Under the pieces are notes generated by a model. The model saw only the letters and a program-made list of their open reading frames with translations. It was not told where the DNA came from and searched no databases. Both the position numbers and the translations under genes were made by a program. DNA of 10,901 bases from IMG/VR virus record IMGVR_UViG_2869970738_000002; one strand, 5' to 3'. Positions 1 through 10,901 of this stretch are shown one piece after another (the stretch's first letter is position 1; every line of letters begins with the position of its first letter). Source of the stretch: a virus (lineage: Duplodnaviria > Heunggongvirae > Uroviricota > Caudoviricetes).

Positions 1-1119
1 TCAAATAACCAGCTTAACCCATTCCTGACCTCGAGTATCGTTATAGCGATCGGTGGTTGCCTGGACTTTATGTCCTAGTAATGTTTTTGTATCGATACCC
101 TGTGCACGGTACAGCCGTTCTGATAGAGAGCGTTGTTCATGAAATGTTGGCGGAGTTTTTCCTGCTGGTGGAATTATCCCAGCCAGATCCCGTGCTTTGG
201 CAAAGTAGTCGCTCAGGTTGTCTTTACTCATCGGCTTCGGTTGTTTCTGGTGCCGACTATGGATTAGATATGGACTTAATATTCTGTCTCGGCACCCATC
301 AATAACTTCTTTTAACGTTATCCCAATGGCATCACAGCGTAGTGTAAGCGGTAACGCCAGACGCATTCCGGTTTTTCCCTGGGTGATATGCAAGTGTTCG
401 TTCCACACATCTGAAAAACGCATGTGGCAAATGTCATCACGGCGCTGACCAGTAACAATCGCAAGAAGCATTGCGTTACGGATAAAGTGTTTTTCAGGCG
501 TTGCATTGTAAATTTTTTGCCAGTCTTCCATGGTGAGCCTGGCTCTGGTTACTTTAGGGATCGGTTTACGGGTAGCCTCCGGAGGATTCCATCCAGGAGG
601 AACTTCCCCTGCATGCTGTGCTTCTTTATAAATATCAACCCATAATCCACGATTTACTCTCGCTGTGCTGACCATGTCTTTATCCAGCCACTCATCCAGT
701 ATTAATGCAAAGTCTCTTACTTCCAGTTCTTTCAATGGGTGGTTTCCCAGACGGGAAACTAGGTATGCAGCCATTCGAGTTTTTTCTTTGTGAGTTGTAG
801 CTGCAATATCTCCATTTTTCAGTCGCGTGTCCTGTATTTTCAGATATCGATCAACCCATGCCTTTAATCTGATACCCCGACGTTTTGTTGCTGACGGACT
901 TTCATCAATTTTGCGCATGAAATATTCAGCTTCTGCTGCAGCTATTCGCTGATTGGCTGTGGAAGCGATTTTTTCTGCCTTACCTTTGTCTGTTCCGAGT
1001 CCGTGAAATTTTCCAGTCACAGGATTTTTATACTGGTAGTAAACTCTGCCAGTTCTGCGATCAAACTTTTCGTAAAGACCGGCTACGTCAGTGCTGTTTT
1101 TTTGTGGCCTCGGTGACAT
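1..1119 (-). CDS. int: Lambda-family tyrosine integrase (prophage Int), complete
   Basis: 372-aa ORF with ATG at 1119-1117 and TGA at 3-1. The C-terminal catalytic region (LLAIVTGQRRDD...PPTFHEQRSLSERLY...LLGH...TTDRYNDTRGQEW) aligns by eye with lambda Int (AVVTGQRVGDL...PPTFHELRSLSARLY...LLGH...QYRDDRGREW). The N-terminal YYQYKNPVTGKFHGLG resembles the lambda Int arm-binding region. Confidence 0.9.
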   Translation of the reverse strand: MSPRPQKNSTDVAGLYEKFDRRTGRVYYQYKNPVTGKFHGLGTDKGKAEKIASTANQRIAAAEAEYFMRKIDESPSATKRRGIRLKAWVDRYLKIQDTRLKNGDIAATTHKEKTRMAAYLVSRLGNHPLKELEVRDFALILDEWLDKDMVSTARVNRGLWVDIYKEAQHAGEVPPGWNPPEATRKPIPKVTRARLTMEDWQKIYNATPEKHFIRNAMLLAIVTGQRRDDICHMRFSDVWNEHLHITQGKTGMRLALPLTLRCDAIGITLKEVIDGCRDRILSPYLIHSRHQKQPKPMSKDNLSDYFAKARDLAGIIPPAGKTPPTFHEQRSLSERLYRAQGIDTKTLLGHKVQATTDRYNDTRGQEWVKLVI

Positions 1120-1335: not shown

Positions 1336-1390
1336 GGTAATGCTGCCAACTTACTGATTTAGTGTATGATGGTGATTTTAAGGTGCTTGC

Positions 1391-1666
1391 GTGGTTTCCA
1401 TTTCCATCAGATGTCCTTCCTGCTCCGCGACTGAAGGCGTGGTGCGTAACGGCAAAAGCACTGCCGGACATCAGCGCTATCTCTGCTCTCATTGCCGTAA
1501 AACATGGCAACTACAGTTCACTTACACCGCCTCTCAGCCCGGTACGCACCAGAAAATCATTGATATGGCCATGAATGGCGTCGGATGTCGCGCCAGTGCA
1601 CGCATTATGGGCGTTGGCCTCAACACGGTTTTCCGTCACTTAAAAAACTCAGGCCGCAGTCGGTAA
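1391..1666 (+). CDS. insA: IS1 InsA (transposition inhibitor / N-terminal part of InsAB')
   Basis: 91-aa [46 protein letters not shown]..., highly similar to canonical IS1 InsA with its zinc-finger CxxC...CxxC motif. Confidence 0.9.
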
Positions 1667-2172
1667 CCTCGCGCATACAACCGGGCAGTGATGTGATTGT
1701 CTGCGCTGAAATGGACGAACAGTGGGGCTACGTCGGTGCTAAATCACGTCAGCGCTGGCTGTTTTACGCGTATGACAGGATACGGAGGACGGTTGCGGCG
1801 CACGTCTTCGGTGAACGCACTCTGGCCACACTGGAGCGTCTTCTGATCCTGCTGTCGGCCTTTGAGGTCGTGGTATGGATGACGGATGGCTGGCCGCTGT
1901 ATGAATCACGCCTGAAGGGAAAGCTGCACGTTATCAGCAAGCGTTACACTCAGCGCATTGAGCGACATAATCTGAATCTGAGACAACATCTGGCAAGGCT
2001 GGGACGGAAGTCACTGTCGTTCTCAAAATCGGTGGAGCTGCATGACAAGGTCATCGGGCATTATCTGAACATAAAACACTATCAGTGGATTTGCCCCTAT
2101 ATTTCCAGACATCTGTTATCACTTAACCCATTACAAGCCCGCTGCCGCAGATATTCCCGTGGCGAGCGATAA
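1585..2172 (+). CDS. insB: IS1 InsB frame, with a 28-aa C-terminal extension read into the inserted IS2
   Basis: The frame ...[58 protein letters not shown]...[12 protein letters not shown] matches InsB. The native TAA stop is displaced by the IS2 insertion after CACTATCAG, so the frame continues [11 protein letters not shown]... to 2172. Confidence 0.75.
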
Positions 2173-3002
2173 CCCAGCGCACTATGCGGATGCCATTCGT
2201 TATAATGTTCGAACGCCTCTGCAAGGTTCTTTGCTGCCGTTAACCCGTCTGGTTTGGGCATGATACTGATGTAGTCACGCTTTATCGTTTTCACGAAGCT
2301 CTCTGCTATTCCGTTACTCTCCGGACTCCGCACCGCCGTGTTCTTCGGTTCAAGTCCCAACATCCGGGCGAACTGGCGTGTTTCATTAGCCCGGTAGCAT
2401 GAACCATTATCCGTCAGCCACTCCACTGGAGACGACGGAAGATCGTTGCCGAAGCGGCGTTCCACCGCTCCCAGCATGACGTCCTGTACTGTTTCACTGT
2501 TGAAGCCGCCGGTAGTCACCGCCCAGTGCAGTGCCTCACGATCACAGCAGTCCAGCGCGAACGTGACACGCAGTCTCTCTCCGTTATCACAGCAGAACTC
2601 GAACCCGTCAGAGCACCATCGCTGATTGCTTTCTTTCACGGCCACTCTGCCTGTATGTGCCCGTTTCGATGGCGGTACAGCAGGTTTTCGCTCAAGCAAC
2701 AGCGCATTCTGGCGCATGATCCGGTAAACACGTTTGGCATTGATCGCAGGCATACCATCAAGTTCTGCCTGTCTGCGAAGCAGCGCCCATACCCGACGAT
2801 AACCATACGTGGGCAGCTCTCCGATAACATGGTGTATACGGAGAAGCACATCCGTATCATCAGTGTGACGACTGCGGCGGCCATCCATCCAGTCATCGGT
2901 TCGTCTGAGAATGACGTGCAACTGCGCACGCGACACCCGGAGACAACGGCTGACTAAGCTTACTCCCCATCCCCGGGCAATAAGGGCGCGTGCGCTATCC
3001 AC
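2097..3002 (-). CDS. insD: IS2 transposase InsD (OrfB)
   Basis: 301-aa [46 protein letters not shown]...; DDE-type IS3-family transposase lying inside the IS2 ends. Confidence 0.95.
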
Positions 3003-3325
3003 TTTTTTGCCCGTCCATATTCAACGGCTTCTTTGAGGAGTTCATTTTCCATCGTTTTCTTACCGAGCAGGCGCTGGAGTTCTTTAATCTGCTTCATGGC
3101 GGCAGCAAGTTCAGAGGCAGGAACAACCTGTTCTCCGGCGGCCACAGCAGTAAGACTTCCTTCCTGGTATTGCTTACGCCAGAGAAATAACTGGCTGGCT
3201 GCTACACCATGTTGCCGGGCAACGAGGGAGACCGTCATCCCCGGTTCAAAGCTCTGCTGAACAATTGCGATCTTTTCCTGTGTGGTACGCCGTCTGCGTT
3301 TCTCCGGTCCTAAGACATCAATCAT
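2960..3325 (-). CDS. insC: IS2 InsC (OrfA; helix-turn-helix regulator / N-terminal part of the InsCD fusion)
   Basis: Within track ORF 2960..3370 the protein starting [56 protein letters not shown] is 121 aa. It overlaps insD, as expected for a -1 frameshift pair. Confidence 0.9.
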
Positions 3326-3439
3326 CTGTACTCCAATGACTAGTCTAAAAACTAGTATTAAGACTATCACTTATTTAAGTGATACTGGTTGTCTGGAGAT
3401 TCAGGGGGCCAGTCTAATCAGTAAGTTGGAGTCATTACC

Positions 3440-4457
3440 CGCCGACTGCCTGGAATTTATCTGGTCGTTACCCGAAAATTCTGTTGACCTGATAGTCACG
3501 GACCCGCCGTACTTTAAAGTGAAGCCTGAGGGCTGGGATAACCAGTGGAAGGGCGACGATGATTACCTGAAGTGGCTGGACCAGTGTCTGGCGCAGTTCT
3601 GGCGGGTGCTGAAACCTGCCGGAAGTCTTTACCTGTTCTGTGGTCATCGCCTGGCATCTGATATCGAAATCATGATGCGTGAACGCTTCAGTGTGCTGAA
3701 CCATATTATCTGGGCGAAGCCGTCCGGACGCTGGAACGGATGCAACAAGGAAAGCCTGCGGGCGTATTTCCCCGCCACAGAGCGCATTCTGTTCGCGGAA
3801 CATTATCAGGGGCCGTATCGTCCGAAAGATGCCGGGTATGCGGCGAAGGGCAGTGCACTGAAACAGCATGTGATGGCCCCGCTGATTTCTTACTTTCGTG
3901 ATGCGCGAGCTGCCCTGGGGATAACGGCAAAACAGATTGCAGATGCCACAGGAAAGAAAAACATGGTGTCGCACTGGTTCAGTGCCAGTCAGTGGCAGTT
4001 GCCGAATGAAAGCGATTATCTGAAATTACAGGCGCTGTTTGCCCGGGTGGCAGAAGAGAAGCATCGGCGTGGTGAACTGGAAAAGCTCCACCACCAGCTG
4101 GTGGATACGTATACCTCACTGAACCGGCAGTATGCGGAGCTGCTGAGTGAATATAAACATCTGCGGCGGTATTTTGGCGTGACGGTGCAGGTGCCGTATA
4201 CCGATGTGTGGACGCATAAACCGGTGCAGTTCTATCCCGGGAAACATCCGTGCGAAAAACCGGCAGAAATGCTGCAGCAGATAATCAGCGCTAGCAGTCG
4301 TCCGGGTGACCTGATTGCAGATTTTTTCATGGGGTCGGGTTCGACAGTGAAAGCGGCACTGGCGCTCGGGCGTCGTGCAATTGGCGTTGAGCTGGAGACT
4401 GAACGTTTTGAGCAGACGGTTCGGGAAGTACAGGATTTAGTCAGCCAGAACGGATGA
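3440..4457 (+). CDS. Orphan DNA methyltransferase (N6-adenine/N4-cytosine class, beta-type motif order), 5' end replaced by IS1/IS2 sequence
   Basis: Motif IV DPPY (SVDLIVTDPPYF) lies near the N-terminus and motif I FxGxG (DFFMGSGST) near the C-terminus. The track ORF 3282..4457 starts at a GTG inside IS2, and native sequence begins at the IS1 boundary (3440) at ...ADCLEF. No restriction endonuclease gene is adjacent. Confidence 0.75.
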
Positions 4458-4459
4458 TA

Positions 4460-4488
4460 TTGAAGAATTAATTACGAGTCGTTATTAT
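4460..4488 (+). promoter_or_regulatory. Sigma70-like promoter immediately upstream of the tRNA cluster
   Basis: TTGAAG (4460-4465), a 17-bp spacer, then TATTAT (4483-4488); the first tRNA starts at 4498. Confidence 0.4.
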
Positions 4489-4497
4489 GCGGCTCCC

Positions 4498-4573
4498 GGC
4501 CCTTTAGCTCAGTGGTGAGAGCGAGCGACTCATAATCGCCAGGTCGCTGGTTCAAATCCAGCAAGGGCCACCA
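4498..4573 (+). tRNA. ileZ: tRNA with anticodon CAU (Ile2 lysidine-type or Met; ileZ-like of lambdoid phages)
   Basis: 76-nt cloverleaf folded by hand: acceptor GGCCCTT/AAGGGCC, D-arm GCTC...GAGC, anticodon loop CTCATAA, T-arm GCTGG-TTCAAAT-CCAGC, 3' ACCA. Confidence 0.85.
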
Positions 4574-4580
4574 TCACATA

Positions 4581-4657
4581 CCGCCATTAGCTCATCAGGA
4601 AAGAGCGCCAGCCTTCGAAGCTGGCTGCGCGGGGTTCAAGTCCCCGATGGCGGTCCA
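4581..4657 (+). tRNA. argN: tRNA-Arg (anticodon UCG; argN-like)
   Basis: 77-nt cloverleaf: acceptor CCGCCAT/ATGGCGG (unusual C1-G72 pair), anticodon stem CCAGC/GCTGG with loop CTTCGAA, T-arm CGGGG-TTCAAGT-CCCCG, 3' TCCA. Confidence 0.8.
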
Positions 4658-4670
4658 TTATCTGCATCAT

Positions 4671-4747
4671 GCGTTGTTAGCTCAGCCGGACAGAGCAATT
4701 GCCTTCTAAGCAATCGGTCACTGGTTCGAATCCAGTACAACGCGCCA
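4671..4747 (+). tRNA. argO: tRNA-Arg (anticodon UCU; argO-like)
   Basis: 77-nt cloverleaf: acceptor GCGTTGT/ACAACGC, anticodon stem ATTGC/GCAAT with loop CTTCTAA, T-arm ACTGG-TTCGAAT-CCAGT, 3' GCCA. Confidence 0.85.
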
Positions 4748-4762
4748 CACTTATTTTCCCTG

Positions 4763-4787
4763 GCTCGCTTTTGCGGGCTTTTTTTTT
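4763..4787 (+). terminator. Rho-independent terminator after the tRNA cluster
   Basis: Stem GCTCGC / GCGGGC with a TTTT loop, followed by a run of nine T (4779-4787). Confidence 0.6.
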
Positions 4788-5013
4788 AAATGTCTCACAA
4801 TTCAGACGGTTGACTGTTGTCTGGTTTGCGGGGAGTTTGTTAAAAGAAACTGGCATGGTGAATCCCCCTGTGCGGAGGGGCAATCAGCGAGTAGGTATAT
4901 GGGATAATCGCGGATTCAGGTGCTGGTACTGAATTCACCGGGAGGCACCCGGCACCATGCAATGGCACATAGCGCCACTCTCCAGCCCCTCTCCGGAGGG
5001 GCTTTCTTGTGGG

Positions 5014-5043
5014 CAAAAAAAGCCCGCGCTGGGAGACGCGGGC
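5014..5043 (-). terminator. Minus-strand Rho-independent terminator with no annotated upstream gene
   Basis: On the minus strand GCCCGCG-TCTCCCAG-CGCGGGC (7-bp GC stem) is followed by TTTTTTT; the plus strand shows AAAAAAA 5014-5020 before the hairpin 5022-5043. Confidence 0.55.
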
Positions 5044-5236
5044 GGCAAGGAATAAACAACAAAACGTGAAGTAATATTTCAGCTGGCGAATAATACCCCA
5101 TAGTAATCACTCTGCGCAACTGCGCGGTCTTTTTCGAATTGCGGGCTGTCGTCTCTCTTCTGCCATTGTCCTGTAACTTCCGGACTTCAGCCCGCTCCTC
5201 ATTTTACTCACAATATTATCCCGGCCGGGAGGATTC

Positions 5237-6625
5237 ATGGCTTTTAAACACTATGATGTTGTCAGGGCGGCGTCGCCGTCAGATCTTGCGGAAAAGCTGA
5301 CACATAAACTGAAAGAGGGCTGGCAGCCGTTTGGTAGTCCGGTGGCCATAACCCCTTATACTCTGATGCAGGCGATTGCAGCAGAAGGTGCAGTAATCAG
5401 CGCCACCAGCGACCCGGAGTATTACTTTGTTGTGGTTCTGGCAGGGCAGTCAAACGGCATGTCGTATGGTGAAGGCCTTCCGCTGCCGGGGACATATGAC
5501 CGTCCGGACCCGCGTATTAAGCAACTGGCGCGTCGCAGTACGGTGACACCGGGCGGTGCAGCATGCAAATATAACGACATCATTCCGGCGGACCATTGTC
5601 TGCATGATGTGCAGGACATGAGCCGTCTTAACCATCCGAAAGCGGACCTGTCAAAGGGGCAGTACGGAACCGTGGGGCAGGGGCTGCATATCGCCAAAAA
5701 ACTGCTGCCGTTTATACCGGCGAATGCGGGCATTCTGCTGGTTCCATGCTGTCGTGGTGGTTCAGCGTTCACCACCGGAGCTGATGGCACATACAGTGAC
5801 GCGAGTGGTGCCTCGGAGAATTCAACCCGCTGGGGTGTGGACAAGCCGCTGTATAAGGACCTTATCGGTCGAACAAAAGCGGCACTGGAGAAGAACCCGA
5901 AAAATGTGCTGTTTGCCGTGGTGTGGATGCAGGGGGAATTTGATTTTGGCGGTACGCCGGCAAATCATGCCGCACAGTTTGGTGCGCTGGTTGATAAATT
6001 CCGTGCAGACCTGGCGGATATGGCAGGCCAGTGCGTCGGTGGCTCTGCTGGCGGTGTTCCCTGGATATGCGGGGACACGACGTATTTCTGGAAGCAGAAG
6101 AACGAATCCACGTACCAGACGGTGTACGGCAGCTATAAAAATAAAACGGAAAAGAATATCCATTTCGTACCGTTCATGACCGATGAGAACGGGGTGAATG
6201 TGCCGACGAACAAACCGGAAGAAGACCCGGACATTCCGGGTATCGGTTATTACGGTTCGAAATGGCGTGACAGCTCAGCCACCTGGACGTCACAGGACAG
6301 GGCGAGCCATTTCAGTTCATGGGCTCGCCGTGGGATTATTTCCGACCGTCTGGCAACGGCGATTCTGAGCTGCGCGGGTAAGTCTTCTGCGTTTGTTAAT
6401 GGTACTGCCGGGGTGGTTGTTCCAGACAGGCCGGTTACCACCTCAGAGTCTGTAATTTTTTACGATGCCAAAAAAGCTACAGACAATCAGCTGAAACCTT
6501 ATGGCTGGGACGGTATGTATGGCAGACGCACACTGGTTGATGACAGCGGCAATAAAGCTCTGCGAATTGAGAAAAATAACAGCTCGAAATCTTGGTCAAT
6601 GTACTGTGAGGTGTACTGGCAATAG
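5237..6625 (+). CDS. Prophage NanS-p-like sialate O-acetylesterase (DUF1737-like N-terminus plus SASA/SGNH GQSN domain); 3' end fused to IS600, probably C-terminally truncated
   Basis: ATG at 5237 preceded by GGGAGG. Protein has the motif VVLAGQSNGMSYGEG and an N-terminal MAFKHYDVVRA...LKEGWQPFGSP module. Sits directly downstream of the ileZ-argN-argO tRNAs, as nanS-p does in lambdoid and Stx prophages. The last 19 nt (6607-6625), including the stop, lie inside the IS600 terminal repeat. Confidence 0.75.
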   Translation: MAFKHYDVVRAASPSDLAEKLTHKLKEGWQPFGSPVAITPYTLMQAIAAEGAVISATSDPEYYFVVVLAGQSNGMSYGEGLPLPGTYDRPDPRIKQLARRSTVTPGGAACKYNDIIPADHCLHDVQDMSRLNHPKADLSKGQYGTVGQGLHIAKKLLPFIPANAGILLVPCCRGGSAFTTGADGTYSDASGASENSTRWGVDKPLYKDLIGRTKAALEKNPKNVLFAVVWMQGEFDFGGTPANHAAQFGALVDKFRADLADMAGQCVGGSAGGVPWICGDTTYFWKQKNESTYQTVYGSYKNKTEKNIHFVPFMTDENGVNVPTNKPEEDPDIPGIGYYGSKWRDSSATWTSQDRASHFSSWARRGIISDRLATAILSCAGKSSAFVNGTAGVVVPDRPVTTSESVIFYDAKKATDNQLKPYGWDGMYGRRTLVDDSGNKALRIEKNNSSKSWSMYCEVYWQ

Positions 6626-6649
6626 CGGACACTACCATTTGTTCTTTTT

Positions 6650-7468
6650 TTAAGCAGCCATCTGATGATATTTTTCCCTGAAGGCTGCCGGGGAGATATT
6701 CCCCAGACGAGAGTGACGACGCTGACGATTGTAGAAAATCTCAATGTATTCCCGTATTACTGAGATGGCTTCATCCCGGTTATTAAAACGATAGTGGCTC
6801 AGGCTCTCATTTTTCAGCGTTCCCCAGAAGCTTTCCATCGGAGCGTTGTCGTAACAGTGACCTTTACGCGACATTGATGTTTTCAGACCAGACTGCTCCT
6901 GTATGACCCGGTAATCGTATGCGCAGTACTGTGAACCTCGATCAGAGTGGTGGATTAGCCCGGCAGGTGGGCGCTGGCTCCTGAGCGCCATAAACAGGGC
7001 TTTACCTGTCAGCTCTTTTGTCATGCGCTCTCCCATGGCGTAGCCGACAATTTCGCACGTATAAACATCTTTGATGCCAGCGAGGTACAACCATCCCTCC
7101 TGTGTGGCAACATACGTCAGGTCCGCCACCCAGACCTGATTTGGTGCTGTAGGAGCGAACGTCTGGTTCAGCAGATTTGGCGCAACTGGCAGATTGTGGT
7201 TCGGGTTCGTAGTCGCTCTGAACTTGCGTTTCTGCTTACAGCGTAGCCTTAGCTCCTTACGAAGACGTGCCAGTCGGTCACGACCAACGATGATGCCATT
7301 CTCTGCCAGCTCCGTCTGGAGCCGCCGGGTTCCATATGTTTCGCGAGTGCGGATATGTGCCACCTTAATCTCCAGTTTTAGCCGCTCATCACTTTGTTTT
7401 CTGTCTGAGGGTTCATGCTGTACCCAGTTGTAATAACCGCTCCTGGATACACCAAATACCTGACACAT
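6650..7468 (-). CDS. IS600-like OrfB (DDE transposase catalytic subunit; expressed as an OrfAB fusion by -1 frameshift)
   Basis: 272-aa ORF with IS3-family DDE transposase features (...WVADLTYV...HHSDRGSQY...). The orfB frame is open upstream through the orfA stop, with a CTGAAAAAT slippery-like run near 7511-7519. Confidence 0.9.
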   Translation of the reverse strand: MCQVFGVSRSGYYNWVQHEPSDRKQSDERLKLEIKVAHIRTRETYGTRRLQTELAENGIIVGRDRLARLRKELRLRCKQKRKFRATTNPNHNLPVAPNLLNQTFAPTAPNQVWVADLTYVATQEGWLYLAGIKDVYTCEIVGYAMGERMTKELTGKALFMALRSQRPPAGLIHHSDRGSQYCAYDYRVIQEQSGLKTSMSRKGHCYDNAPMESFWGTLKNESLSHYRFNNRDEAISVIREYIEIFYNRQRRHSRLGNISPAAFREKYHQMAA

Positions 7469-7503
7469 CGCTTCAATGGGAAATTGTTGTCGCCATTGTT
7501 CGA

Positions 7504-7806
7504 TTAACGCGTATTTTTCAGCGACTCCTGTGCAAAATACGCTGTTGCTTTTTTTAATATATCTCGCTCAAGGCGAGCTTCATTTAACGCCTTACGCAGT
7601 TGCAGAATTTCAGATTCCAGTTCAGCCACCGTGCGGGAACCAGGAGTACCGAGCCCTTTTCTGGCGGCGGTAACCCATTGTCCTAAAGTGCCTTCAGGAA
7701 GGGATAATCGGGAAGCGCCTTCACTGATCGAAAGTTGATTTTCAAGAACCGTTCTGACAGCTTCGGCTTTGAACTCTTTAGAGTAACGTTGGTTTTTTCT
7801 GCTCAT
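7504..7806 (-). CDS. IS600-like OrfA (helix-turn-helix transposase subunit)
   Basis: 100-aa ORF MSRKNQRYSKEFKAEAVRTVLENQLSISEGASRLSLPEGTLGQWVTAARKG...; identical protein encoded at 10599-10901. Confidence 0.9.
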   Translation of the reverse strand: MSRKNQRYSKEFKAEAVRTVLENQLSISEGASRLSLPEGTLGQWVTAARKGLGTPGSRTVAELESEILQLRKALNEARLERDILKKATAYFAQESLKNTR

Positions 7807-7870
7807 TATTAGCTCCTTCTGATGCCATTCTATTTCAGGAAGGAGTGTCCGTTAAACTCAGGCTACCTCA

Positions 7871-8359
7871 TATGTCGGGCGCTCATCCGGTATAAGGGAT
7901 CGCGTTCTTAATATCAATGAAACCGCTGATGTATGGTCTTATGCTTACGGTAATAATTTGCTAACTCTGTCATCAATATATAACCGAAGAATAATGGTTA
8001 TCTGCCTGGTGTTTGGTTGCCGACAGCAGGAGGCGAGGCTATCCACCTGGGACGAATGGGATTTAAAAAACTGGGTATGGACAGTCCCAAAAGAGCACAG
8101 CAAAAACAAGGAGGCTATAGTAAGGCCTGTTCCTGACGGAATAAAACAATGGATCGTTAATCTTTACGCAGAAACAAAAAATCGCGGTTATGTTGTCGGT
8201 TGTGCTTTGCAAAGGGCGACAATAACAGGGGCTGCAAACAGAATATGCAGGCGTCTTGGTCATGATACTAATGGCTTGTGGTGCATACATGATTTCAGGC
8301 GCACATTTTCCACTACGCTTAATGATATGGGGGCGGATCCTTATATTGTCGAACTTCTT
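7871..8359 (+). pseudogene. Internal fragment of a second, different tyrosine integrase, truncated at both ends by IS600 and IS1
   Basis: Frame is open from the IS600 boundary to the IS1 boundary. Encodes ...ICLVFGCRQQEARLSTWDEWDLKNWVWTVP...HDFRRTFSTTLNDMGADPYIVELLG, corresponding to the Int catalytic core (compare lambda AVVTGQRVGDLCEMKWSD...HELRSLSARLY...LLGH). The fragment ends before the LLGH histidine and the catalytic Tyr. Confidence 0.7.
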
Positions 8360-8414
8360 GGTGATGCTGCCAACTTACTGATTTAGTGTATGATGGTGTT
8401 TTTGAGGTGCTCCA

Positions 8415-8690
8415 GTGGCTTCTGTTTCTATCAGCTGTCCCTCCTGTTCAGCTACTGACGGGGTGGTGCGTAACGGCAAAAGCACTGCCGGACATCAGCG
8501 CTATCTCTGCTCTCACTGCCGTAAAACATGGCAACTGCAGTTCACTTACACCGCTTCTCAACCCGGTACGCACCAGAAAATTATTGATATGGCCATGAAT
8601 GGCGTTGGATGCCGGGCAACTGCACGCATTATGGGCGTTAGCCTCAACACGATTTTACGTCACTTAAAAAACTCAGGCCGCAGTCGGTAA
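8415..8690 (+). CDS. insA: IS1 InsA
   Basis: 91-aa [46 protein letters not shown]... Confidence 0.95.
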
Positions 8691-8734
8691 CCTCGCGCAT
8701 ACAGCCGGGCAGTGACGTCATCGTCTGCGCGGAA

Positions 8735-9112
8735 ATGGACGAACAGTGGGGATACGTCGGGGCTAAATCGCGCCAGCGCTGGCTGTTTTACGCGTATGAC
8801 AGGCTCCGGAAGACGGTTGTTGCGCACGTATTCGGTGAACGCACTATGGCGACGCTGGGGCGTCTTATGAGCTTGCTGTCACCCTTTGACGTGGTGATAT
8901 GGATGACGGATGGCTGGCCACTGTATGAATCCCGCCTGAAGGGAAAGCTGCACGTAATCAGCAAGCGATATACGCAGCGAATTGAGCGGCATAACCTGAA
9001 TCTGAGGCAGCACCTGGCACGGCTGGGACGGAAGTCGCTGTCGTTCTCAAAATCGGTGGAGCTGCATGACAAAGTCATCGGGCATTATCTGAACATAAAA
9101 CACTATCAATAA
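8735..9112 (+). CDS. insB: IS1 InsB frame (C-terminal part of the InsAB' transposase; the true product arises by -1 frameshift at 8664-8672)
   Basis: Track [95 protein letters not shown]...HYQ. A TAG at 8639-8641 in this frame lies upstream of the frameshift site and does not affect the fusion product. Confidence 0.85.
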
Positions 9113-9127
9113 GTTGGAGTCATTACC

Positions 9128-9521
9128 GGCGTTGCAGATGCTTGATGATGATGAAAAGGGAGTAAATTTAACTTACACCCCAGGAGGAAATCAGAATATG
9201 AGAATTATCTCTGAGTCAGGTTTCTACAAACTAATAGCCCGCAGCCGCAAAGCAACGACGCCTGGCACATTTGCTCATCGTTTCAGTAACTGGGTATTCA
9301 GAAATGTGATACCAGGTATCAGAAAAACGGGGACTTATGGTATCCCGTGGGGTGCATTACAGGATTTTTCCCGCCGTAAAGAGCAATATCAAATAAGTGC
9401 CAGCGAGAAGGGGAGGGAGCTACAGGCATGTAAGCGCAAAAAGCGTGAGCAGGAGGAAGAAGAAAAAACGCTGATACGTGAATATCAGCCTGAGTTTTAC
9501 TTTGGTAACCGCATTCAGTGA
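9128..9521 (+). pseudogene. Bro-N domain (phage antirepressor-like) protein, N-terminally truncated by IS1
   Basis: Native sequence begins at the IS1 boundary: ...LDDDEKGVNLTYTPGGNQNMRIISESGFYKLIARSRKATTPGTFAHRFSNWVFRNVIPGIRKTGTYG matches the conserved C-terminal half of Bro-N domains (pattern LDDDEKGV...IISE.GLY.L..RSRK...F..WV...V.P.IRK.G.Y). The first 5 codons of track ORF 9114..9521 are IS1-derived. Confidence 0.6.
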
Positions 9522-9551
9522 CAAAACAAAGGCGACCGCAAAAGGGTCGCC
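9521..9551 (-). terminator. Rho-independent terminator for the minus-strand two-gene operon, convergent with the Bro-N fragment
   Basis: Hairpin GGCGACC-GCAAAAG-GGTCGCC (9531-9551); on the minus strand it is followed by TTTGTTTTGT (plus ACAAAACAAA, 9521-9530). Confidence 0.5.
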
Positions 9552-9617
9552 AGTGGGAACAAGGGAAAACAAAAGCATCACCAACAATGCCACATTTGCG
9601 GCTGGTGGGCAATGTGA

Positions 9618-9797
9618 TCAGTCAGATTTGGTTCGTTCCAAGGTTTGCAACGAGAGCTTTTTCCTGTGCTCTTTAAGGAATTTCTCAAGAGCAAACGAAC
9701 AAGGTGCGAATCTTTCTGATTCATGTTCATGCGCTATATTTTTGCGTCGTCTCTTACGAGTTGGTGATGGTGTTTTGGTTGATTCTGTGTCGCTCAT
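9618..9797 (-). CDS. Hypothetical 59-aa highly basic protein, not in the supplied ORF track; second gene of the minus-strand operon
   Basis: Hand translation of the minus strand: ATG at 9797-9795, MSDTESTKTPSPTRKRRRKNIAHEHESERFAPCSFALEKFLKEHRKKLSLQTLERTKSD, TGA at 9620-9618. AGGA lies about 8 nt upstream of the ATG. It starts 57 nt after the stop of the 101-aa gene and ends 67 nt before the terminator. Contains AGA x2, CGA x2, AGG and ATA codons. Confidence 0.35.
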   Translation of the reverse strand: MSDTESTKTPSPTRKRRRKNIAHEHESERFAPCSFALEKFLKEHRKKLSLQTLERTKSD

Positions 9798-9854
9798 GGT
9801 GCTGTCCTGTAAAGCAATGCGCCTGCGTTCCTCAAACTATGGCGCTGATATTGG

Positions 9855-10160
9855 CTATTCATGCTCTTTGACCTTGCGTCGCTGGAGTTCTTCACGCGCG
9901 ACGGTGACGAGTTGCCCGATCTCCTCGGCTGCTTTGATGCCGATTTGTTCGACCTTAGCCAGGGCATCCAGTGACGACACAAGGGGATTTTCTCCGCTGC
10001 CTTCTGCTTGGCGGCGGGCCATTTCTCCGCGCATGGCGGTTACGATAAATCCGGCATTGCTTTCACCGTCCAGCTTAACGGATTCCATCCCTTGCATAAC
10101 ATCTAGTGGGACTCTGACAGTTGTCAGTTGTGATTTTGCGTTTTTGTTAGCCGTTGCCAT
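9855..10160 (-). CDS. Hypothetical 101-aa protein with an Arc/Mnt/CopG-like ribbon-helix-helix N-terminus (putative DNA-binding regulator)
   Basis: ATG at 10160-10158 with AGGAG 8 nt upstream. The N-terminus LTTVRVPLDVMQGMESVKLDGESNAGFIVTAMRGEMARR fits the RHH pattern of beta-strand, helix, G-x-S-x-N turn, helix (compare Arc ...FNLRWPREVLDLVRKVAEENGRSVNSEIYQRVMESF). The C-terminal half is predicted helical and charged. Confidence 0.55.
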   Translation of the reverse strand: MATANKNAKSQLTTVRVPLDVMQGMESVKLDGESNAGFIVTAMRGEMARRQAEGSGENPLVSSLDALAKVEQIGIKAAEEIGQLVTVAREELQRRKVKEHE

Positions 10161-10180
10161 TTCTGAAACTCCTAATCATC

Positions 10181-10260
10181 GGTGTGTTTCAGTATACACA
10201 AAAAAAGAAATACAAAAAGCCTTGACGTGTGTTTCATGCGCTCATAACATGAAACACACC
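10181..10260. promoter_or_regulatory. Divergent promoter region with three copies of GTGTGTTTCA (two direct, one inverted), a putative operator array
   Basis: GTGTGTTTCA at 10182-10191 and 10227-10236, with the inverted copy TGAAACACAC at 10250-10259. Copies 2 and 3 form a perfect 12-bp inverted repeat (10227-10238 / 10248-10259, 9-bp spacer) overlapping a plus-strand promoter TTGACG (10222-10227), 17 bp, TAACAT (10245-10250). Copy 1 lies between a minus-strand TATACT -10-like element and the RHH gene RBS. Confidence 0.4.
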
Positions 10261-10350
10261 GAAAGGATTGTTGAAATACAAAGAGCAACGCCCCGCAGTG
10301 CTGGGAACACATACGGGGCGTCTAACCAACAACGTAAACTAGGAGCCGTT

Positions 10351-10542
10351 ATGGTTGCTGTAAATCATATACCACACCTTGTACACACACAAACGGCCTT
10401 TGTGTGGCGTTTTCTGGCACTGAGTGCCGGAGAATCTCAAATCATCCACGTAACCGCCTGGACGGAACGCGAAGCGCGTAGCCGTTGCCCGTCCGGTTGT
10501 GTTGCTGTATTCGCTGCAAAAATCCGCCAGGGAGTGAGGTAG
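10351..10542 (+). CDS. Hypothetical small protein, divergent from the RHH gene; 3' end runs into IS600, probably truncated
   Basis: ATG at 10351 with AGGAG 5 nt upstream (10341-10345): MVAVNHIPHLVHTQTAFVWRFLALSAGESQIIHVTAWTEREARSRCPSGCVAVFAAKIRQG.... The last codons and the stop (10540-10542) are inside the IS600 left end, which begins at 10535. It is the 3' part of the long track ORF 9478..10542, whose upstream portion I consider non-coding. Confidence 0.35.
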   Translation: MVAVNHIPHLVHTQTAFVWRFLALSAGESQIIHVTAWTEREARSRCPSGCVAVFAAKIRQGVR

Positions 10543-10901
10543 CCTGAGTTTAACGGACACTCCTTCCTGAAATAGAATGGCATCAGAAGGAGCTAATAAT
10601 GAGCAGAAAAAACCAACGTTACTCTAAAGAGTTCAAAGCCGAAGCTGTCAGAACGGTTCTTGAAAATCAACTTTCGATCAGTGAAGGCGCTTCCCGATTA
10701 TCCCTTCCTGAAGGCACTTTAGGACAATGGGTTACCGCCGCCAGAAAAGGGCTCGGTACTCCTGGTTCCCGCACGGTGGCTGAACTGGAATCTGAAATTC
10801 TGCAACTGCGTAAGGCGTTAAATGAAGCTCGCCTTGAGCGAGATATATTAAAAAAAGCAACAGCGTATTTTGCACAGGAGTCGCTGAAAAATACGCGTTA
10901 A
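10535..10901 (+). mobile_element. Second IS600-like IS3-family copy, partial in window (left 367 bp), inverted relative to the copy at 6607-7870
   Basis: Starts TGAGGTAGCCTGAGTTTAACGGACACTCCTTCC..., identical to the reverse complement of 7870 downward; flanking sequence diverges exactly at 10535. Continues past the window end. Confidence 0.85.
10599..10901 (+). CDS. IS600-like OrfA (second copy)
   Basis: 100-aa ORF identical to the protein encoded at 7504-7806 on the minus strand; stop TAA at 10899-10901. Confidence 0.9.
   Translation: MSRKNQRYSKEFKAEAVRTVLENQLSISEGASRLSLPEGTLGQWVTAARKGLGTPGSRTVAELESEILQLRKALNEARLERDILKKATAYFAQESLKNTR

Follow-up and report, generated by a model that had tools for sequence, protein, structure and literature searches.

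A toxin-free moron-site module with two convergent small RNA genes in the remnant of a lambda-like prophage

The region between a methylase and an esterase gene in the virus record IMGVR_UViG_2869970738_000002 (positions 4458-5236 of the window, as we call the whole stretch of 10,901 nucleotides that was analyzed) very probably represents the 'moron site' module that is conserved in the late region of lambda-like (Stx-phage-type) prophages, here toxin-free and embedded in an IS-riddled remnant. The spacer between the tRNA terminator and the esterase gene carries two already-described convergent small regulatory RNA genes, a pair that is also located just downstream of the Shiga toxin genes in toxin phages. 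The identity and position of every part, the stx2 junction and the collinearity with Stx phages were established directly in this analysis. Transcription and Hfq binding of the sRNA pair are taken from the literature on near-identical copies, while expression in the strain of the window and the targets are inferred. Every element of the locus has already been described in the literature.

Table 1. Positions of the genes, signals and insertion elements identified in and around the module
Feature	Position	Strand	Evidence or remark
Lambda-type integrase gene	1-1119	-	beyond IS1
IS1	1336-3442 (right end 3417-3442)		interrupted by IS2
IS2	2087-3417		inside IS1
DNA N6/N4 methyltransferase gene, 5'-truncated	3440-4457	+	Pfam N6_N4_Mtase, E 4e-43
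pT-type promoter of tRNA operon, TTGAAG-17-TATTAT	4460-4488	+	consensus scan; position of the annotated pT of 933W
tRNA, anticodon CAT (ileZ)	4498-4573	+	ARAGORN; Rfam tRNA 72.5 bits; tRNA-Ile in RefSeq at 98%-identical locus
tRNA-Arg (TCG), argN	4581-4657	+	ARAGORN; Rfam tRNA 58 bits
tRNA-Arg (TCT), argO	4671-4747	+	ARAGORN; Rfam tRNA 70.1 bits
Intrinsic terminator of tRNA operon	4762-4788 (stem 4762-4779 + T9)	+	terminator scan; terminator annotated at matching position in 933W
STnc100-family sRNA gene, EcOnc05 subtype	4824-5014	+	Rfam RF02076, 139.4 bits (threshold 47)
Convergent sRNA, EcOnc08/21/42 kind	5015-5084	-	terminator scan; EcOnc08 Hfq-CRAC peak projects onto 5017-5089; start at 5083/5084 predicted
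Predicted promoter of minus-strand sRNA	5090-5119	-	-35 TTGCGC (5119-5114), 18-nt spacer, -10 TATTAT (5095-5090)
Esterase 5' leader and ribosome-binding site	5124-5236	+	94% identity with the 933W sequence that precedes its esterase gene; conserved in alignment A1
NanS-p-type sialate O-acetylesterase gene, 3'-truncated	5237-6603	+	Pfam DUF1737 and SASA

tRNA operon and truncated neighboring genes

Region 4458-5236 is the exact interval from the methylase stop (ORF 3282-4457) to the esterase start (ORF 5237-6625). The promoter, the ileZ-argN-argO tRNAs, the terminator and the NanS-p-type esterase that a sequence-only reading had described in this order were all found here (ARAGORN, Rfam, promoter and terminator scans, Pfam), and each of the three tRNA calls was supported by both ARAGORN and Rfam. 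Order and anticodons of the tRNAs (CAT, TCG, TCT) equal those annotated in Sakai Sp4 (ileZ1/argN1/argO1) and 933W. The CAT tRNA is labeled Met by ARAGORN, which goes by the anticodon, whereas RefSeq labels it tRNA-Ile in the 98%-identical locus. Within the pT-type promoter TTG and TATTAT were unvarying in five prophages, and the transcription start of the phage tRNAs has been mapped by dRNA-seq in Sakai Sp5 (PMC7547250). Transcription from this promoter would be constitutive, would include all three tRNAs and would stop at the intrinsic terminator behind argO, and the tRNAs would supply rare Ile and Arg codons.

The tRNA operon of 933W resembles that of the window in having its promoter, three tRNAs with equal anticodons and terminator in corresponding positions, but Q/PR'/tR' are located ~400 bp upstream of its tRNAs, while in the window the methylase gene directly precedes them. 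The latter arrangement had been considered unusual in the sequence-only reading. Q is indeed absent, but the layout as such is standard for many Stx2 phages and stx-free prophages; as in the window, the methylase gene lies immediately 5' of the tRNAs in Sp9 and many Stx2a phages. Prophages with this layout (Stx2 phages, Sakai Sp9 and toxin-free ones) carry Q or a Q-like gene 0.6-3.3 kb further upstream. In the window, homology of the methylase to its Stx2-phage counterpart starts at position 3440, corresponding to codon ~14 of a gene that in full would begin at ~3399, and the ORF called from 3282 enters the methylase gene out of the IS1 end. The absence of Q is thus explained by IS1 (carrying IS2), which replaced everything upstream of methylase codon ~14.

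The esterase gene is damaged at its other end. IS600 (6604-7870) cuts it at 6603/6604, leaving ~456 native codons of an ORF of 462 codons (5237-6625), with esterase homology extending to about 6609. Both domains of a full-length NanS-p (DUF1737 and SASA, ~616-648 aa) are present in a product that falls short of this length, which makes it a truncated member. Past IS600 lie a fragment of an integrase, another copy of IS1 and genes belonging to a different element. The locus is a small island of prophage late region between IS-mediated deletions. An exact-protein look-up showed this arrangement on 17 NCBI contigs, with PTES01000002.1 being 99.97% identical over the whole window; the whole window was found in none of the 5,426 complete E. 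coli genomes searched, and two scans of species-representative genomes for its exact junctions gave no match. The load of IS1, IS2 and IS600 points to Shigella as a possible host.

Toxin insertion point

The tRNA-to-nanS-p order had been proposed to be collinear with the late regions of Stx phages, and alignment to Stx2a phages bears this out. Window positions 3440-4788 and 4791-6378 align to these phages on either side of stx2AB; the left block ends at the T-run of the argO terminator, the right block resumes 41 bp past stx2B, and the 1,332-bp stx2AB cassette is skipped between 4788 and 4791. The position of this junction reduces the toxin slot to a single point at the spacer's left-hand end. 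No stx-like ORF was detected in the window among the listed ORFs and Pfam domains. Cargo at the 4788/4791 point varied among the Sakai prophages (none in Sp4 and Sp9, a tciA/terB-like gene in Sp10 and Sp11). The Stx1 phage Sp15 lacks the tRNAs, and its stx1AB genes adjoin the sRNA module at about window position 4853. Where a prophage carries toxin or other cargo, such as stx2AB or tciA/terB-like genes, its place is most likely between the tRNA terminator and the plus-strand sRNA. This type of sRNA pair lies downstream of stxB in both Stx1 and Stx2 phages and is present with or without the toxin. The earlier description of the locus as a toxin-free cargo site consequently holds for the lack of toxin and for the known 'moron' insertion site, but not for the spacer, which is not itself the bay. 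The idea of a cargo site as such is correct and already the published view.

Alternatively, the locus could derive from an Stx-converting phage and never have been an unoccupied site, its stx genes having been removed by a precise deletion or through recombination with a prophage that had no toxin. In favor of this, both flanks show collinearity with Stx2 phages (94% on the left, 80-87% on the right) with a clean break at 4788/4791, and the same type of sRNA pair follows stx1AB on the 3' side in Sp15, as it does stx2AB in some Stx2a phages. We nevertheless consider it quite unlikely, since neither the stx promoter region nor the 41-bp 3' flank has left a trace, the sequences nearest to the spacer come from toxin-free prophages (Sp4, Nil3 and FDAARGOS_1059, 97%) while Stx phages reach just 71-88%, and the toxin-free layout is far commoner. 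At a coverage of at least 80%, this layout was observed in 902 of the 5,426 complete E. coli genomes and in eight phage records. Whether stx was ever present is a matter of the history of the locus and leaves the identity of its parts unaffected.

Convergent small RNA genes of the spacer

The spacer had previously been read as an empty or alternative cargo site. This reading does not hold, since an STnc100-family sRNA, a convergent minus-strand sRNA and the esterase leader fill it and the stx2 junction is the point at its left edge. The plus-strand terminator, the at least three further GC-rich hairpins and the minus-strand terminator that had been noticed in it are real, as confirmed by the terminator scan and the hairpin folds. 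Six terminator-like sites were detected in the region as opposed to 1.2 +/- 1.1 in shuffled sequences, among them 4762-4779 followed by T9, 4984-5003 and 5112-5127 on the plus strand and 5043-5022 on the minus strand, and the GC-rich hairpins beyond the tRNA terminator are located at 4865-4880, 4912-4936 and 4938-4952.

The plus-strand gene is a member of the STnc100 family, as judged from its sequence, and its expression in the host of the window may be expected from that of near-identical copies. The match at 4824-5014 spans model positions 1-206 of 206 (E 2e-31) and hence is not driven by the terminator. The GC-rich hairpins noted before fall within this full-length match and thus represent helices of the RNA, which are enclosed by a further one (4853-4860/4953-4960) and followed by the RNA's own terminator (4984-5003). 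Ten copies from different prophages were aligned; of 33 consensus pairs, five showed compensatory changes on both sides and none was systematically broken. In addition, the EcOnc05 northern probe, taken as its reverse complement, is identical to window positions 4882-4916, and the Hfq-CRAC peak of Sakai EcOnc05, an RNA with a northern size of ~222 nt (Tree et al. 2014, PMC4104026), projects onto 4885-4993 of the plus strand. Candidate 5' ends are the Rfam model start at 4824 and, as implied by the northern size, a position at ~4790 (4790-4800). No convincing sigma-70 promoter upstream of this sRNA emerged from the consensus scan. A conserved TTGAC(T/A) box (4810-4815), considered as a candidate -35 element, has no acceptable -10 at 16-18 nt; a -10-like TTAAAT (4786-4791) fits the northern sizes yet has no -35.

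On the minus strand, a terminator (stem 5043-5022, U-run to 5015) faces the one at 4984-5003 with 18 nt between them, so that the back-to-back terminators characteristic of the convergent moron-site pair are present in the window. This terminator ends a known Hfq-bound RNA, as indicated by the projection of the EcOnc08 peak of Sakai Sp4 (Table 1). The fold of the 5015-5084 interval had a minimum free energy z of -2.3. We predict an RNA of ~70 nt running from 5083/5084 to 5015, which is consistent with the crosslinking peak. The published northern for the EcOnc08/21/42 kind detected ~271 nt with a probe upstream of the predicted 5083/5084 start (PMC4104026); given this size and probe position, there is also a longer transcript, which would extend to about 5285 and so run antisense to the start codon of the esterase gene. 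With its probe so placed, this northern does not display the predicted ~70-nt species. The probe matches window positions 5089-5123 at 30 of 35 positions (five mismatches) and at all 35 in the 97%-identical relatives. When read on the plus strand, the DNA of the predicted minus-strand promoter forms the hairpin 5112-5127 with its T-run.

The enrichment of terminator-like sites on both strands (six versus 1.2 expected) together with the varied cargo accepted at the site could be taken to indicate that the cargo site is empty and that its terminators or insulators act in cis only, as hairpins that halt or buffer transcription from the tRNA operon towards the esterase and lysis genes and yield no functional RNA product. 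Such a cluster is very unlikely to be the explanation: the three internal hairpins lack T-runs and form part of the full-length STnc100 match, compensatory changes preserve their pairs, near-identical copies including the reported Sakai Sp4 produce discrete Hfq-bound RNAs from both strands, and the module is kept downstream of stxB, where filler of an empty site would be senseless. The absence of an ORF from the spacer had been asserted as well and is right in substance, the overlapping ORFs being of the TTG-start type only (53-77 aa). The least probable alternative, that one or more small proteins are encoded by TTG-start ORFs (4699-4932 on the plus strand, 4840-5016 and 4916-5119 on the minus strand) or by a short ORF inside STnc100, can point to ORFs of 58-77 aa, some labeled 'hypothetical protein' in phage phi296, and to one EDL933 STnc100 copy with a raised ribosome-footprint ratio and a Shine-Dalgarno-like 'tatgggata' (PMC5331693; found at window 4896-4904), but was rejected because every candidate starts with TTG and crosses terminators, homologous copies in alignments A1 and A3 differ by frame-breaking gaps of 28, 15 and 1 nt (not multiples of three), the sole RefSeq call in the corresponding gap of a relative is a pseudogene fragment, and ribosome coverage is low on most STnc100 copies (PMC5331693).

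We compared the minus-strand member of the pair with the RNAs that occupy the same slot elsewhere. The models of AsxR and AgvB (Rfam RF02703 and RF02702), families with a conserved 3' region of ~42 nt, gave no match in 4995-5240 even at E <= 10, and membership of the window's RNA in these families was rejected on this basis; the same models do find the partner RNA in 933W, Sp9, Sp10 and Sp17. A match to OmrA-B was weak (23.7 bits, threshold 40) and was set down as a generic resemblance between sRNAs with terminators. Alignment A2 comprised the minus strands of nine sequences from the STnc100 terminator to the esterase start. All nine shared the -35 block AAAAAGGCCGCGCAGTTGCGCAG, within which TTGCGC was unvarying, and the -10 columns were common to all, reading TAAAAT in the AsxR/AgvB type, for which the starts have been mapped experimentally (TSS, PMC4104026), and TATTAT (5095-5090) in the type found in the window. 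Past the -10 the two types have unrelated bodies, and the terminator stem of the window type also differs from that of AsxR/AgvB. With position, orientation and promoter in common and no match to the models, the minus-strand RNA of the window behaves like an alternative cassette in the AsxR/AgvB slot and is not a member of these families.

The window-type minus-strand module was detected in 992 of the 5,426 complete E. coli genomes. Phage records containing the module numbered 54, and Stx2 phage records with the minus-strand RNA numbered 30. The EcOnc08/21/42 kind has no Rfam family and is unannotated throughout those E. coli genomes and phage records. A homologue, EcOnc42, has been reported to 'bookend' stx1AB in the Stx1 phage Sp15 (PMC7547250), and the presence of an EcOnc42-type RNA beside stx1AB was confirmed by sequence. 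The single-stranded 5' part of the minus-strand RNA contains an unvarying 11-nt stretch, UUACUUCACGU, which is identical to nt 40-50 of Spot 42, so that the RNA could mimic a portion of the surface with which Spot 42 binds its targets. Chance alone would give ~0.1 such matches among all known sRNAs, and the identity is no more than a lead. It is doubtful, if conceivable, that the minus-strand RNA is a third cassette of the short AsxR/AgvB-type sRNAs (~70 nt, Hfq-binding, with conserved promoter and unrelated body) that, by copying part of this surface, would tie prophage carriage to sugar or sialic-acid catabolism, its gene being adjacent to that of the sialate esterase.

Related modules and meaning of the locus

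For eight of the lambdoid prophages in Sakai, Tree et al. 2014 described sRNA genes that converge at the moron site, downstream of PR' (PMC4104026; reviewed in PMC7873438). The pair architecture of the window recurs in six reference prophages, including 933W, Sp9, Sp10, Sp17 and Sp15. The neighbors of the pair in the window are canonical (tRNA trio and esterase gene), while Q/PR' and the lysis genes were removed by IS1/IS2 and IS600. Closest in layout is Sakai Sp4 (EcOnc05/EcOnc08, PMC4104026), in which ileZ-argN-argO is followed by a gap of 489 bp at Sakai positions 1,179,669-1,180,157 and an esterase(-like) gene; the gap is 97.3% identical to that of the window without indels, and both RNAs were detected there (Tree et al. 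2014). Unlike in the window, with its methylase gene, an AraC-family gene lies upstream of the tRNAs in Sp4, and the prophage of the window is a remnant without Q or lysis genes. The two are not orthologous, as Sp4 is located beside tusE/ECs_1054 and the remnant beside potC/potD.

The EcOnc27/AsxR pair of Sp5 and 933W shares with the window the position relative to the tRNA trio and esterase gene, the convergent back-to-back terminators, the Rfam family of the plus-strand RNA as well as the -35 block and -10 columns of the minus-strand promoter. It differs in having stx2AB between argO and the plus-strand RNA, in the central part of this RNA, which is just ~70% identical to that of the window, and in AsxR (53 nt, 88 bits), the body of which is not detectably similar to the partner RNA of the window.

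STnc100 is the computational name for EcOnc27 (Sakai) and sRNA103 (EDL933), and work on OMVs places it 75 nt past the stx2 operon (PMC12370729). EDL933 has 11 annotated copies, all 11 of them with RNA-seq reads and one confirmed by northern (PMC5331693). The Salmonella STnc100 RNAs (founding members of RF02076 in Gifsy/Fels-type prophages) are likewise multi-copy prophage RNAs and match the same covariance model over its full length, but they reside in a different host next to different genes. PasD1 and PasD2 of EPEC E2348/69 are similar in being Hfq-dependent prophage sRNAs encoded directly 5' of a sialate esterase gene (PMC8550237; bioRxiv 10.64898/2026.05.13.724894), a likeness that we draw from published descriptions; they are reported to be structurally homologous to STnc100, too diverged for BLAST and with different seed regions (bioRxiv 10.64898/2026.05.13.724894).

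Most likely, the plus- and minus-strand RNAs are Hfq-binding regulators that act in trans by base pairing and that the prophage expresses in the lysogenic state. If the phage were intact, RNA polymerase modified by Q would start at PR' and pass each of the four terminators to transcribe nanS-p and the genes for lysis. With both PR' and Q gone, any contribution of this late-promoter read-through to the plus-strand RNA is lost in the window.

The occurrence of an EcOnc08/42-type RNA in the AsxR/AgvB slot, with the same promoter, an unrelated body and an 11-nt stretch in common with Spot 42, is mildly new, while the locus otherwise opens no new question. Overexpression of an Stx2-phage STnc100 copy has been reported to increase fimZ and espA transcripts, which links the family of the plus-strand RNA to virulence gene expression, and sequence variants just 3' of stx2B, inside the plus-strand RNA, were found by machine learning to predict haemolytic uraemic syndrome in O157:H7 most strongly (PMC12711010). 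That the tRNA-sRNA block is intact in a remnant that has lost half of its esterase gene as well as Q and the genes for lysis is compatible with, if no proof of, a usefulness at the level of the host. The significance of the locus is mainly that of a correction: gaps in lambdoid late regions that appear 'empty' hold regulatory RNA genes that are missed by an ORF-based reading and by most annotation.

The plus-strand sRNA start and the stx2 junction

According to published northern sizes of about 222 nt for EcOnc05 and about 235/247 nt for EcOnc27, the 5' end of the plus-strand sRNA, a member of the STnc100 family, falls at about position 4786-4800 of the window. This coincides with the junction at which the stx cassette is inserted in Stx2 phages, and the Rfam model begins about 35 nt further downstream. 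At this northern-implied end we noted the -10-like hexamer TTAAAT (TGTAAT in 933W), for which no -35 was found. In some prophages an additional 28-34 nt, ATTACAGGAAAGACAC.GGACAGTGAAATG, separate the argO terminator from the sRNA module. In the Sakai prophage Sp9 locus and the toxin-free phage phi296, this additional segment occupies the exact stx2AB insertion point of Stx2 phages (see table for coordinates).

In phi296 we also observed matches to isrK, the C4 antisense RNA and the c4 target (a1b1) at 2084-2279, upstream of the anti-repressor genes. Together they make up an immunity RNA module of the P1/P7 type within a toxin-free lambdoid phage.

The minus-strand sRNA and the esterase leader

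Among 5,426 complete E. coli genomes, 992 carry the EcOnc08/42-type module (window 5010-5125); the type strain ATCC 11775 and O104:H4 C227-11 are two of these carriers. The module also occurs in 54 phage records, 30 of which are Stx2 phages. None of the records listed annotates it, and it has no Rfam family. Within the short minus-strand sRNA predicted at 5015-5084, the 11 nt UUACUUCACGU match nt 40-50 of Spot 42 (spf, MG1655) exactly and were unchanged in all five aligned copies of the EcOnc08/42-type sRNA. Since about 0.1 chance matches of this kind are expected across all known sRNAs, we regard this match as a lead only.

The terminator-like hairpin in the esterase leader was strongly conserved in all prophage copies compared, with an invariant core. 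The DNA encoding this plus-strand hairpin is also the -35 region of the predicted minus-strand sRNA promoter, and a single element may therefore serve both strands.

IS elements and the prophage flanks

The right end of the IS2-interrupted IS1 adjoins the methylase gene at codon ~14, which accounts for the absence of the late antiterminator gene Q, the late promoter PR' and the whole early region. The distal stretch (7958-10542) also contains genes of another mobile element, represented in related contigs by AlpA- and Bro-N-domain genes.

Coordinates of features in the window and in two comparison sequences
Feature	Sequence	Position	Remarks
First IS1	window	1336-3442	split by IS2 at 2087-3417
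Hairpin CTGCGCAACTGCGCGG + T-run	window	5112-5127	plus strand
First IS600	window	6604-7870	truncates esterase gene
Second integrase fragment	window	7958-8386	
Second IS1	window	8360-9130	90% identical to first IS1
ORF with Icd-like C-terminus	window	9478-10542	
Second IS600	window	10535-10901	inverted; starts at window end
Extra 28-34-nt segment	Sp9 (L008)	1850-1885	
Extra 28-34-nt segment	phi296 (L002)	6326-6355	

The two IS600 copies were 100% identical over 367 nt. On the far side, related contigs run on into cheA/cheW, whereas the integrase side is located next to potC/potD/cobB; this points to an IS-mediated chromosomal rearrangement.
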